Assembly (NCBI RefSeq): GCF_029227855.1
Contig: NZ_CP074356.1
Reading direction: 5' to 3' (one strand)
Origin: Escherichia coli
GTDB lineage: Bacteria; Pseudomonadota; Gammaproteobacteria; Enterobacterales; Enterobacteriaceae
Length of the DNA: 64,000 nucleotides
The notes beneath the pieces were generated by a model, which did not search any database, was not told where the DNA came from, and saw nothing but the letters and a program-made list of their open reading frames with translations. Shown here one piece after another: positions 2,566 to 48,277 of this stretch. Both the position numbers and the translations under genes were made by a program. Position 1 is the stretch's first letter, and the number at the start of each line of letters is the position of its first letter.

Positions 2566-5500
2566 TTACCTGTTTAGCGTAGCGCGAATAATCGGCCCAA
2601 TTTTTTCAAACGCCCCTGGAGAGATAATATCCACATGCGCACAATCCTGACGATAGATATCCAGCTCCGCAATCCACGGCGACCAGGCGCGTTCGGGATT
2701 CATACCTTCCTGAAGCGTGCGTTCAGCAACAAACAGCGTCGCTTTACCGTCAAACGGTACACTATGAGCAGTCGTCAGCAGGCGCACAGCATCAGCGTAG
2801 TTGCCTTCAATGGTGGTAAACAACTCCGTTGAAGTACTTCCCTGCTGTGCCGCCAGGAAGGCCTCGCGCTCGCGGTTAATCTCCGCCAGCACTTCCGGGT
2901 CCAGGCCATTAGCCTCTTTTTCCTGCCAGTTTTGCGTTTCTGGCGGCCAGGTATCCAGCAAGCCAAAAAATGCCACCTGTTCGCCACGGGCACGCAGCCG
3001 CGCCGCAATACCCTGCGCCAGCGTACCGCCCAGCGAATAACCCAGCAGGTAATAAGGGCCGTGCGGTTGATGCTCAAGTAACGTTGCCAGATGCGCTTCG
3101 CAGACTTCATCCAGATTTGCCGCGGTCTGCATGGGGCCATTGGGGCGCGGCGACTGAATGCCGATAATCGACCATTGTGGATCGAGATAACGCGAGAGCA
3201 CGCTGAACTGCCAGGCAAAACCGGACGCAGGATGGAAACAAAACAGCGTCGGGCCATTACCTTCACGCAACGGCAGAATGGTTTCGAATCCCATGCGCCG
3301 GGAGCTGTCTTCTTCACCATCAATAATCGTTGCCAGTTTGGCGACAGTTGACGCGACCATCACCTGCCCCGGCGTCACCTGGCGGGTAAACTGCCGACTT
3401 AACTGCGCAGCCAGTTTCATTGCCAGTAGCGAATGACCGCCAAGCGCGAAGAAATCAGCATCGGCATCCTGCACGTCACAACCCAGCAACGACGAGAATG
3501 CCGCGGCGATAATCGTTTCACTGCCCGCTTTCGGCGCACGCCCCGGCGCTTGTGCCTTCAGTTCAGGCAACGGTAAGGCTTTGCGATCCAGCTTGCCGTT
3601 GGCGCTAAGCGGCAACTGCGGAAGTTGCAGCAGAACCACGGGCACCATATGCGGTGGCAATGTTTCGCGCAACTGCGCCTGCAATGCAGTGGTATCCAAC
3701 GGCAGGCCTGATTGCGACACCAGATACCCAACCAACTGACGCGCATCGCCTCCCGTTGCGGCAGCCTGGTTAATAACGCAGGCGTGGGTCACGGCCTGTT
3801 CAACGTCCGGCAGCGCCTGCATCACGCGGTCGATTTCGCCCAGTTCGATACGCTGCCCGCGAATTTTTAGCTGATCGTCACTGCGCCCGAGGTACTCCAC
3901 CGCGCCGTTATCCAGCCAGCGGGCAACGTCTCCGGTACGGTACATCCGTTCACCTGGGGCAAAAGGATCGGCAATAAAGCGGCTGGCGGTCAGATCGGGG
4001 CGTCCGAGATAGCCCTGCGCCAGTTGTATGCCAGTGAGATAGAGATCACCCGCCACACCTGGCGGCACCGGATGCATCATCGCATCAAGAATACGCAGGC
4101 CCGTATTCCACACCGGATAACCAATCGGCACACTACTGCCGCGCACCTGTGCCAGTTCCTCGCCAAAAGCCGGATACCAGCTGACATCTACCGCCGCTTC
4201 CGTCGGGCCATATAGATTATGCAACGGCACGCTGGTTAACTGTTGCCATTCGCGGCATAAATCAGCGGGTAAGGCCTCACCACTACAGAAAACCTGTTTC
4301 AACGTCGCGCAATTCTGGCGAGCGGTTTGCGGCGTCAGCGATGCAACAAATGCCGCCAGCATCGACGGCACAAAGTGCGTAGTCGTTACGCCATATTCGG
4401 CAAAGAATTGCTGCATAGCGAGCGGGTCGCGGTGCGCTTCCGGTTCAGCCATCACCAGTTTAGCCCCGGCAATAAACGGCCAGAAAAACTCCCACACCGA
4501 GACATCAAAACTGCACGGCGTTTTTTGGGCAACGACATCTTCGCCTGTAAGCGGGTAGTGGTTTTGCATCCAAAGCAGGCGGTTAACGATAGCCGTCTGC
4601 CCGACCATTACCCCTTTCGGCCTGCCGGTGGAGCCAGAGGTAAAGATGATATAAGCCGTGTGGTGCGGTTGTGAAAGTTTCAGCGGCGCACTGCCCTGCG
4701 GTGTAAGCGGGGCGTTATAGCAAAGGCTGGTTAAATCTGGAACATCGGCAAAGCGCGGCAGTTGATCGTCGGTGGTGATTAACAGCGACGGACGCGCATC
4801 TTCCAGCATCATTTTCAGGCGATCGTCCGGATAGCCGGTATCCAGCGGTAACCAGGCCGCACCAGCCTCAACAATTGCATGTAGCGCCAGAGTCAAAAAG
4901 ACCGAGCGCGGTAGCGCCACCGCCACGCTGTCGCCTGGTTTAACGCCGCGCTCACGCAGCAGATTCGCCAGCGCCACCACCTGCTCGCGCATTTCCCGAT
5001 AGCTAAACTGGTAACTCGCATCAACCAGCGCCGGAGCATGCGGTGTTTTTGCCGCTTGTTCTGCCACCAGCGCGCTCAGCGTGGTTTCTGGAATCTCAAC
5101 CTGAGTGGCGTTGATCTGCGCCAGCTGCACATATTCACCTGGCAGCATAATATCGACATCGCCGCACAACAGCGCCGGATCCGCGGCGAACTGGGCAATC
5201 AGCATTTTCAGGCGTTCAGCATGCTGGATTAACGTTGGCTCATCGTAACGCTGTTTATTGGCGAGGATCTCAATACTCAAATCACCGTGTTCATCCGGGA
5301 ACAGGGCCAGTTCAAGGTCATTAACCGGACCGGTTGCCAGGGTATGGGTTTGCGTCTGAACACCAGGAATATCCAGTTGGTAATCAAATACCTTGATATT
5401 GAGTACCGGACCGAACAGCGGTTCCTCTCCTGCCGCTCGCCCGCTGTCACGGACAATTTGTTCGGCATCGTAACGTTGATAACGACGCATTTTTTTCAGT

Positions 5501-10389: not shown

Positions 10390-10487
10390 GCCGGATGCGG
10401 CGTGAACGCCTTATCCGGCCTACAAAAATCTTGCCAATTCAATATATTGCAGGACCACGTAGGCCTGATAAGCGTAGCGCATCAGGC
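10390..10487. repeat. REP/BIME elements (two REP palindromes) between fepA and entD
   Basis: gccggatgcggcgtgaacgccttatccggcctac and gtaggcctgataagcgtagcgcatcaggc are typical E. coli REP sequences. Confidence 0.8.
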
Positions 10488-10515: not shown

Positions 10516-11145
10516 ATGGTCGACATGAAAACTACGCATACCGCCCTCCCCTTTGCCGGAAATACGCTGCATTTTGTTAAGTTCGATCCGGCGAGTTTTT
10601 GTGAGCAGGATTTACTCTGGCTGCCACACTACGCGCAACTGCAACACGCTGGACGTAAACGTAAAACAGAGCATTTAGCCGGACGGATCGCTGCAGTTTA
10701 TGCGCTGCGGGAATATGGCTATAAATGTGTGCCCGCAATCGGCGAGCTACGCCAACCTGTGTGGCCTGCGGGGGTATACGGCAGTATTAGCCACTGTGGG
10801 GCTACGGCATTAGCCGTGGTATCTCGTCAACCGATTGGCATTGATATTGAAGAAATTTTTTCTGCGCAAACAGCGGCAGAATTGACAGACAACATTATTA
10901 CACCAGCAGAACACGAGCGACTCGCAGAATGCGGTTTAACCTTTTCTCTGGCGCTGACACTGGCATTTTCCGCCAAAGAGAGCGCATTTAAGGCAAGCAA
11001 GATACAGGCCGCTCAAGGTTTTCTGGATTATCAGATAATTAGCTGGAATAAACAGCAGATCATCATTCGACTAGAGGATGAGCAGTTTGCTGTGCACTGG
11101 CAGATAAAAGAAAAAATAGTCATAACGCTGTGCCAACACGATTAA
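10516..11145 (+). CDS. entD: Phosphopantetheinyl transferase EntD
   Basis: 209-aa product MVDMKTTHTALPFAGNTLHFVKFDP...; the ORF-track start at 10375 runs through the REP element and is rejected. Confidence 0.92.
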   Translation: MVDMKTTHTALPFAGNTLHFVKFDPASFCEQDLLWLPHYAQLQHAGRKRKTEHLAGRIAAVYALREYGYKCVPAIGELRQPVWPAGVYGSISHCGATALAVVSRQPIGIDIEEIFSAQTAAELTDNIITPAEHERLAECGLTFSLALTLAFSAKESAFKASKIQAAQGFLDYQIISWNKQQIIIRLEDEQFAVHWQIKEKIVITLCQHD

Positions 11146-11164: not shown

Positions 11165-11635
11165 TTCGCCCGCAGCCATTACTGACCGCGGGCGAAAGTG
11201 TAAAGCAGGTGCCTTACCATCCTGACCTGACAACCGGATATGCGGGGATTGCTCCCCGCACAACGGCTACTTCTTCGGTTCGTAAGCGAGAACAGCCTTA
11301 AACTCAATATTACGTTCCTTCACCGTAAACTCACACAGCGAGTCGCGGACCAGAAGCGTAAATCCCAGCACCGTTAAACACAGCACTATGACTGCCACAA
11401 GGGCATATTTCGTCAGCATGTTTATATTGCCTCCATGCGAAGAAGGGACTACCATCCGAGTTGTTCAGGTTTGGGTAGGTAGCCCCAGGGTTGATAGAAA
11501 TATCGTCCTGGGGCTTCATCTTTCCAGACCTCAGAGTTAACCTGAAACCGGAAAGCTTCAGGCACCCGCCGTTATCTTACCCTTCCTCAGCAAAATAGCT
11601 GTTTATTTATACAGTGAATCCTGTTTCGGACTTCT
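11165..11635. repeat. Tandem repeat unit 1 carrying a hok/sok-type type I toxin-antitoxin locus
   Basis: About 470 bp that realigns with 11670-12137 at roughly 95% identity by eye; contains hok copy 1. Confidence 0.85.
11267..11419 (-). CDS. hokE: Hok-family small membrane toxin (HokE-like), copy 1
   Basis: 50-aa product [50 protein letters not shown]; an overlapping mok-frame ORF is present (11331..11519). Confidence 0.85.
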
Positions 11636-11669
11636 GTTGGCAAAACTGATCATTGCCCTTAAAACGACA

Positions 11670-12137
11670 TCGCCCGCAGCCATTGCTGACCGCGGGCGAA
11701 AGTGTAAAGCAGGTGCCTTACCACCCTGACCTGACAACCGGATATGCGGGGATTACTCCCCGCACAACGGCTACTTCTTCGGTTCGTAAGCGAGAACAGC
11801 CTTAAACTCAATATTACGTTCCTTCACCGTAAACTCACACAGCGAGTCTCCGACCAGAAGCGTAAATCCCAGTACCGTCAAACACAGCACTATGACTGCC
11901 ACAAGGGCATATTTCGTCAGCATGTTTATATTGCCTCCATGCGAAGAAGGGACTACCATCCAAATTGTCTGGTTTGGAGTGGCAGCCCCAGGGTTGATAG
12001 AAATATCTCCTGGGGCTTCATCTTTCCAGACCTCAGAGTAAACCTGAAACCGGAAAGCTTCAGGCACCCGCCGTTATCTTACCCTTCCTCAGCAAAATGG
12101 CTGTTTATTTATACAGTGAGTCCTGTTTCGGACTTCT
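11670..12137. repeat. Tandem repeat unit 2 carrying a second hok/sok-type locus
   Basis: Direct repeat of 11165-11635 with scattered substitutions. Confidence 0.85.
11771..11923 (-). CDS. Hok-family small membrane toxin, copy 2
   Basis: 50-aa product identical to copy 1 except G for R at the LLV(G/R)DSL position. Confidence 0.8.
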
Positions 12138-12354
12138 CACTCCTAATTTGATCAACTGAAGCTGAACCCGTTTTTTTCTGCATGCCTCAATCGTCAAAAT
12201 TCTTCGCCACCAGCCAGCTCTGCCATAACTTGTCACATTGCAAAAGTAGCCAAATTGCTTCAGTCACCATCACCAAAAAAAAGAAACATTCCAGAACTTC
12301 CGCATCTCGCCCAGCCGCTCCGACTTCTATACTGAATAGAAAACGCCAACATAA

Positions 12355-13482
<1,128 letters not shown>

Positions 13483-16901: not shown

Positions 16902-17043
16902 TGGGACCCCCTTTTGATTTCTTGTTTGACACTTGCAGTTGCCAGACCGCAAAGTGTTTTAACAAATCAAAAGGGGTTTTAATAACTGGCTCAAAGCTGA
17001 AAGCTTTCCGGAACCCCCAGCCTAGCTGGGGGTTTTCTGTGCA

Positions 17044-48200: not shown

Positions 48201-48277
48201 TGGCGCGCCCTGCAGGATTCGAACCTGCGGCCCACGACTTAGAAGGTCGTTGCTCTATCCAACTGAGCTAAGGGCGC
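48201..48277 (-). tRNA. argU: tRNA-Arg (anticodon UCU), argU
   Basis: Reverse complement reads GCGCCCTTAGCTCAGTTGGATAGAGCAACGACCTTCTAAGTCGTGGGCCGCAGGTTCGAATCCTGCAGGGCGCGCCA; cloverleaf with TCT anticodon and CCA end. Confidence 0.95.

Follow-up and report, generated by a model that had tools for sequence, protein, structure and literature searches.

Between entD and ybdK, the 64-kb stretch of E. coli DNA that we analysed (the window) carries two complete hokE/sokE modules on the minus strand, which we refer to as copy 1 (entD-proximal) and copy 2 (ybdK-proximal). Copy 1 is convergent with entD and copy 2 is divergent from ybdK; the features of both units are collected in Table 1. Global alignment of the two units spans 470 columns, of which 14 are mismatched and 4 contain a gap (96.2% identity), a similarity that is far above chance. 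A direct-repeat search returns the same relationship as three collinear blocks with a start-to-start spacing of 502-504: 11166-11464 with 11670-11968 (299 nt, 97%), 11465-11504 with 11968-12007 (40 nt, 88%) and 11506-11652 with 12008-12154 (147 nt, 93%).

The first-pass annotation of this DNA had described two tandem direct repeats of about 470 bp at 11165-12137, each with a hok frame, whose toxins differ at a single residue (R versus G). Self-comparison shows both units within bounds that prove essentially exact, both 50-aa hok frames are intact in the list of open reading frames, and the differing residue is number 25, arginine in copy 1 and glycine in copy 2. The tandem layout holds in that the units lie head to tail, but they are not strictly contiguous, being separated by a 34-nt spacer. 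With a period of 504 nt, 96% identity and a common strand, the pair constitutes a hok islet in the sense of at least two units of the same type, head to tail, within 2 kb. There is no third copy of the unit elsewhere in the 64-kb window. Tandem Repeats Finder reported no repeat at the two units because the 504-nt period exceeds its 500-nt period limit, and the empty result is thus not evidence against the repeat.

Table 1. Features of the two hokE/sokE units and the genes that flank them (positions are those of the window).
Feature	Position	Strand	Basis or remark
entD	10525..11145	+	context gene, convergent with hokE copy 1
Unit copy 1, entD-proximal, complete hokE/sokE module, 470 nt	11166..11635	-	direct repeat with copy 2
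3' terminal hairpin of hok mRNA, copy 1	11166..11195	-	inverted repeat; 13-bp stem in fold; no U tract after it
fbi element (AGGCACCU)	11207..11214 (copy 1), 11711-11718 (copy 2)	-	pairs with tac in predicted fold
hokE copy 1 CDS, 50 aa, Arg25, WP_000956470.1	11267..11419	-	ORF list; RefSeq; Pfam PF01848
Candidate mok frame, copy 1, 62 aa	11267..11455	-	in-frame ATG 36 nt upstream of hok ATG
hok mRNA 5' leader, copy 1, inferred transcript start 11567	11411..11567	-	Rfam RF01794, 76.0 bits
Sok promoter, copy 1, TTGCCT-N17-TACCAT	11427..11455	+	exact motif; K-12 RpoD site
Sok-1 antisense RNA, putative, 61 nt	11463..11523	+	homology to K-12 sokE
Sok-1 5' tail, 19 nt	11463-11481	+	followed by G+C-rich hairpin and U tract
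tac element (GGGUGCCU)	11560..11567 (copy 1), 12062-12069 (copy 2)	-	pairs with fbi in predicted MFE and centroid folds
Inter-unit spacer, 34 nt	11636..11669	-	
Unit copy 2, ybdK-proximal, complete hokE/sokE module, 468 nt	11670..12137	-	direct repeat with copy 1
3' terminal hairpin of hok mRNA, copy 2, followed by UGUCGUUUUA	11670..11699	-	sole terminator-like site called by scan
hokE copy 2 CDS, 50 aa, Gly25, WP_000956465.1	11771..11923	-	ORF list; RefSeq annotation
Candidate mok frame, copy 2 equivalent	11771..11959	-	ORF list
hok mRNA 5' leader, copy 2, inferred transcript start 12069	11915..12069	-	Rfam RF01794, 83.7 bits
Sok promoter, copy 2, TTGCCT-N17-TACCAT	11931..11959	+	exact motif; K-12 RpoD site
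Sok-2 antisense RNA, putative, 59 nt	11967..12025	+	homology to K-12 sokE
Sok-2 5' tail, 18 nt	11967-11984	+	followed by hairpin and U tract
ybdK	12364..13482	+	context gene, divergent from hokE copy 2

Each hok ORF is 153 nt long, and the two coding sequences differ in three codons, two of them synonymously and the third at residue 25 (CGC in copy 1, GGA in copy 2); the copy 2 protein is otherwise the same as that of copy 1. Residues 5-46 of the copy 1 protein match the HOK_GEF family PF01848 over model positions 1-42 of 42 (E = 3.7e-10). A search of NCBIfam returned no HokE-specific model, and the scores against NF007290 (HokA equivalog; 53.9 and 49.2 bits, cut-off 89) and NF007279 (Hok family; 44.8 and 40.0 bits, cut-off 73) fall below their cut-offs. 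RefSeq names both WP_000956470.1 and WP_000956465.1 HokE in strain JNEC-KY178, which over 1.5 kb matches the window at 100% identity, and the Gly25 protein is the commonest HokE variant in our sample. Around the codon for Tyr46 (UAC, with G as the next base) both copies keep CUUACGAA, at 11279-11286 and 11783-11790 on the minus strand. A recent preprint mentions that in hokE mRNA TadA recodes this residue from tyrosine to cysteine through an A-to-I change (bioRxiv 10.1101/2025.08.07.668861).

The start of a mok frame is less clearly marked than that of hok. A long in-frame extension upstream of hok is found in copy 2 only, and indels between alleles shift the frame in this region. The ATG at -36 is the sole upstream in-frame ATG kept in all units; it coincides with the Sok -10 box, so that its conservation is confounded and gives no proof of a mok start. 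A second candidate is an out-of-frame ORF that enters from -38, with a TTG start in copy 2 and a copy 1 counterpart that is open from the ATG at 11519. This arrangement resembles that of mok in R1, which begins 59 nt upstream of hok in another frame and has a GAGG Shine-Dalgarno sequence; no equivalent start is pinned down in hokE. There is no annotation of mokE in K-12, and a literature search on mokE returned nothing relevant.

Upstream of each hok frame, the Rfam model RF01794 (gathering score 59) matches over its full length, positions 1-157, on the hok-sense strand. Because the match runs in the hok sense and spans the mRNA from its 5' end as far as the hok AUG, it marks the hok leader, and we took model position 1 as the transcript start of each hok mRNA. 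The model is labelled "sok antitoxin" yet hits the hok-sense strand, a name that is misleading for annotation; Sok itself lies antisense to about positions 45-105 of the model. Judged by its position relative to the model start, the sequence TAAGAT at 11574-11579 and 12076-12081 is a candidate -10 element of the hok promoter.

Checked in both copies, the fold-back elements are predicted to pair in each of the two ~400-nt mRNAs, in the minimum free energy and the centroid folds alike: nt 1-8 (tac) pair with nt 354-361 in copy 1 and with nt 352-359 in copy 2 (fbi). In both units fbi lies directly upstream of the 13-bp terminal hairpin, and the predicted folds are more stable than those of dinucleotide shuffles (z = -7.4 and -7.25). 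Pairing of the 5' and 3' ends is a hallmark of the hok mRNA family (PMC9841398).

The Sok promoter, also checked in both copies, is in each identical to that of K-12, and the same hexamers are given for the RpoD holoenzyme binding site ybdK/sokE of K-12 in a SELEX listing (PMC3946193). The promoter was assigned through this identity and this listing, and not through a sigma-70 consensus scan, which at a threshold of 9/12 called no promoter; the Sok promoter scores 8/12. A Sok RNA is encoded in both units. The two RNAs are homologous to the annotated 60-nt sokE of K-12, an alignment with which set their ends; on this homology they would be transcribed, and each is predicted to fold as a 5' tail and a hairpin. 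Low-scoring Rfam matches to mir-1990 at 11467-11531 (E = 0.085 and 0.83, far under the gathering score) correspond to the Sok hairpin and were dismissed.

In many genomes PGAP calls, on the strand opposite the hok leader, a "hypothetical protein" some 89 aa long (e.g. WP_009008364.1). ORFs of this kind lie at 11388-11540 and 11892-12041 on the plus strand of the window and at 3439-3702 and 3943-4210 of one compared stretch (L002); the annotation of the window's twin genome treats the two as pseudogenes with a frameshift or an internal stop. The ORF is probably spurious, riding on constrained hok/sok sequence. Elsewhere in the window, Rfam matches above gathering score mark the Hfq-binding sRNA STnc490 (16911-17034, minus strand, 144.6 bits), ES036/CssrF between fepA and entD (10425-10466, plus strand, 42.2 bits) and one tRNA (48204-48277, minus strand).

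We considered how the locus compares with that of K-12. As the first-pass annotation had stated, K-12 MG1655 (b4415/b4835) has a single hokE, with its sokE, beside an IS186 element, and the window is indeed free of IS186 at this site. The K-12 module lies between entD and ybdK as in the window, its unit is 96-97% identical, its Sok RNA is homologous, and its HokE differs from the copy 2 protein at one residue (V8A). Unlike the window, with two intact units and no IS, K-12 has IS186B in a hairpin loop, splitting the coding part from fbi and the terminator; the element begins 19 bp past the hokE stop. It occupies positions 3508-4852 of the K-12 stretch and sits in the G+C-rich hairpin loop GGGGAG-TAAT-CCCC. 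IS186/IS421-family elements also lie beside or between hokE units in O104:H4 FWSEC0009, APEC E18005 and 118C, and the hairpin past the hokE stop would be a recurrent IS186 target if these other insertions use the same hairpin. The K-12-type hokE-IS186 junction occurs in at most 1,964 genomes, an upper bound that also counts other Hok/Gef loci hit at 89% identity; this set overlaps the two-copy set.

The second copy had been read as amplification followed by divergence. It is a tandem duplication, but not one specific to this strain: the same junction, from copy 2 through the spacer to copy 1, occurs in 44% of the complete E. coli genomes searched (2,402 of 5,426), among them O157:H7, O104:H4 and APEC strains. 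This count comes from blastn with an 81-nt query across the junction and a match over at least 80% of the query. It replaces a megablast search with the same query that found 759 genomes, an undercount, as that program needs an exact 28-nt word and variant spacers do not supply one. About 90 records share the exact haplotype of the window at 99% identity or more, and PGAP annotates hokE twice in two-copy genomes.

When one genome per species was scanned for the pattern, the pair and the same junction at entD-ybdK were found in E. whittamii, in Escherichia sp. MOD1-EC7003 (where the stretch examined covers the ybdK flank only) and in the divergent representative "E. coli SCPM-O-B-8794", and one unit each in E. 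albertii and Escherichia sp. E1V33. Strain KKo009 (NZ_CP091673.1, 953-2259 of the stretch) has three tandem hokE units between entD and ybdK. In strains 4/4, AR_0089 and AVS0970 the neighbour of hokE is not entD but an island that encodes SDR oxidoreductases and an ABC permease and that meets the 3' end of copy 1 exactly; the breakpoint corresponds to window position 11165/11166.

Because the junction is common to 44% of E. coli and to other Escherichia species, the duplication is old and shared. The state of the window is one of the one-, two- and three-unit states of a copy-number polymorphism, of which K-12 shows another, and the single, IS186-disrupted copy of K-12 is not the reference state of the species for the hokE locus. 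The two-copy locus is already known and routinely annotated; it is real but ordinary. Escalera-Maurer et al. describe hok islets, clusters of 2-6 hok genes within 2 kb that hold 10% of Hok genes and form through local duplication; for the chromosomal hok genes of Escherichia the share is 13.5% (bioRxiv 10.1101/2025.08.07.668861). Two hokE genes in 44% of genomes, at a median of 6 hok per chromosome, would give about 15%, which by this rough inference is of the order of 13.5%. The entD-ybdK pair is not named in the available preprint text (bioRxiv 10.1101/2025.08.07.668861), and Faridani 2006 mentions neither hokE nor tandem copies.

The window thus very probably holds, at entD-ybdK, two complete head-to-tail hokE/sokE modules that are one state of an old Escherichia polymorphism, each working in the manner of R1 hok/sok. 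By analogy with R1 (PMC9841398), a weak promoter would give a stable hok mRNA of about 400 nt, which tac-fbi end pairing would keep translationally silent until slow 3' trimming allowed it to refold. The refolded mRNA would then have two fates: translation, through the leader frame, to give the 50-aa membrane toxin, or binding of the short, unstable antisense Sok RNA, followed by cleavage or degradation. Transcription, toxicity and antisense control would be expected in the window's strain on the same analogy. For R1 hok placed on the chromosome, knock-out of the Sok promoter has been shown to be lethal or to select hok suppressor mutations (PMC9841398).

The substitutions between the copies, described in the first-pass annotation as scattered, are instead clustered: the 19 nt to which the Sok 5' tail is complementary hold 7 of about 20 inter-copy differences (Fisher p = 3e-6). 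The same pattern holds across 14 two-copy genomes, in which paralogue divergence amounts to 69 of 266 cells (26%) in the tail and 56 of 2,142 (2.6%) in the CDS, about 10 times higher in the former. In E. whittamii the paralogues have no CDS difference and three tail differences, and KKo009 combines three identical Hok proteins with three different Sok 5' tails; tails also differ despite identical Hok in SCPM-O-B-8794 and GN05505. No tail is shared between co-resident units in any of the 21 multi-copy genomes with every unit read, which represent about 13 distinct haplotypes and, as many of them are related, are not 21 independent observations. O104:H4 FWSEC0009 and APEC E18005, with one readable unit each in the stretch, were left out of this count.

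Each of the two tail alleles of the window occurs in many other strains, and the alleles occupy different positions across strains (type B is in copy 2 in the window and in copy 1 in strain 4/4), which implies that unequal exchange or gene conversion has reshuffled them. The predicted duplex between tail and target has an energy of -35/-36 kcal/mol for cognate pairs and -17 kcal/mol for non-cognate pairs. The predicted Sok-target hairpin of copy 1 is weaker than that of copy 2 (-7.0 versus -13.1 kcal/mol), because an A-type 5' arm meets a C-type 3' arm and mismatches result; the Rfam score of copy 1 is lower as well. Within this hairpin (11445-11492), CTCGG replaces TTTGG and breaks pairs that every other sampled allele keeps. 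The mixed arms look like the product of a very short conversion tract or of two transitions.

The divergence of the tails suggests that the antitoxins are insulated from each other. Because the 5' recognition tails have diverged, the two Sok RNAs would act mainly on their own mRNA. Such specificity does exist between diverged loci, since R1 hok is repressed by none of the K-12 chromosomal Sok RNAs (PMC9841398). A tentative extension, which we rate somewhat below an even chance, is that selection keeps co-resident units orthogonal, with the toxin gene and most of the mRNA homogenised by gene conversion and the Sok tail and the target loop and stem staying different. With tails and targets kept different within every genome, each antitoxin would then control its own toxin mRNA alone, and the copy number, from one to three, would set the count of independent kill switches.

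The data fit, without proving, selection against antitoxin cross-reaction; relaxed constraint on the loop region is an alternative explanation of the divergence. The concentration of inter-copy differences in the Sok tail is a modest, mildly new point, and the available text of the preprint contains no analysis of Sok divergence between islet members (bioRxiv 10.1101/2025.08.07.668861). If the insulation holds, the entD-ybdK array would be a natural system for the avoidance of antisense-toxin cross-talk amid concerted evolution.

An unlikely alternative to two working modules is that at least one unit is an inert relic whose sequence has been preserved through hitch-hiking and gene conversion; copy 1 would be the likelier casualty. 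The mismatched, weaker target hairpin of copy 1 would fit such a history, as would the IS186/IS421 elements that lie beside or inside units in K-12, O104:H4, APEC E18005 and 118C. A point against two working modules is that no U tract follows the terminal hairpin of copy 1. Strain BS-04 offers a further parallel, with one intact ybdK-proximal unit and a visibly decayed entD-proximal one. The decayed unit survives as fragmentary 87-92% matches over about 650 bp (499-1150 of the stretch), a copy in the course of eroding. Moreover, earlier studies summarised in the preprint reported chromosomal hokA, hokB and hokC as inactive for post-segregational killing (bioRxiv 10.1101/2025.08.07.668861).

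Against relics stands the conservation of the parts that the mechanism would need. The 50-aa Hok ORF is intact in 35 of 35 units compared (24 genomes) and in every further unit read, and the low CDS divergence between paralogues, like the two synonymous and one non-synonymous codon differences in the window itself, points the same way. An alignment of 32 units shows no variation in tac or in the Sok -35 and -10 boxes, and a single variant of fbi; of the 22 distinct leaders, 7 maintain the Sok-target hairpin through a compensatory change from AU to GC. The preprint also reports that K-12 HokE is toxic on over-expression (bioRxiv 10.1101/2025.08.07.668861).

The origin of the second module may also be asked. 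It is distinctly unlikely, in our view, that it was inserted or recombined as a related hokE cassette with its own 34-nt upstream sequence, and was not duplicated in situ. The junction of a simple duplication should comprise the sequences that flank the unit, and the spacer resembles neither: its similarity to the flank upstream of copy 2 (shuffle p = 0.26) and to that downstream of copy 1 (p = 0.88) is not significant. The shift of allele types between positions from strain to strain would also suit an insertion, but unequal crossing-over through three-copy intermediates can reshuffle alleles without one. The units are moreover 96% identical over their full length, promoter and terminator included, and of the same hokE type, and 98% of hok islets consist of a single 60%-identity cluster, which the preprint takes to favour local duplication (bioRxiv 10.1101/2025.08.07.668861). 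The spacer is kept, with variants, in all multi-copy genomes examined, and its homology in all junction-positive genomes argues for a single origin.

A related proposal is that single-copy strains are recombinants of a window-like pair, joining the 5' part of copy 2 to the 3' part of copy 1. The flanks fit, as K-12 sequence left of the IS aligns with copy 2 and the ybdK-side flank and sequence right of it aligns best with the 3' end of copy 1 and the entD-side flank. The tails of K-12 and RIVM_C037794 match neither unit, and we rejected this derivation; the history of the locus is more mosaic than that of a simple chimera of the two copies.

The presence of two copies in the window and one in K-12 could in principle reflect a recent, strain-specific amplification with rapid divergence, but the breadth of the junction within E. 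coli and beyond it, the many records with the same haplotype and the occurrence of both tail alleles in other strains make this scarcely credible. That the duplication is an assembly artefact has practically no probability, as the units differ at about 20 positions and thousands of complete assemblies, made independently, show the same arrangement.

The locus is close to several described systems. Like the hok islets of Escalera-Maurer et al. (bioRxiv 10.1101/2025.08.07.668861), it represents local duplication of a single hok type. With hok/sok of plasmid R1 (parB) each unit has in common a toxin of the Hok/Gef family, an mRNA of about 400 nt that is structured and predicted to pair at its 5' and 3' ends, and a short cis-antisense RNA from within the leader that has a single-stranded 5' tail and a terminator hairpin. 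R1 hok/sok is plasmid-borne, whereas the locus in the window is chromosomal, and the sequences have diverged. The ibs/sib, ldr/rdl and zorO-orzO/zorP-orzP loci likewise repeat highly similar toxin/antisense modules in a single intergenic region, in a copy number of one or two that varies with the strain (Fozo et al. 2010, PMC2887945). They belong to other toxin families and have other regulatory architectures, with neither tac/fbi end pairing nor mok; the Sib and Orz antitoxins distinguish cognate from paralogous targets.
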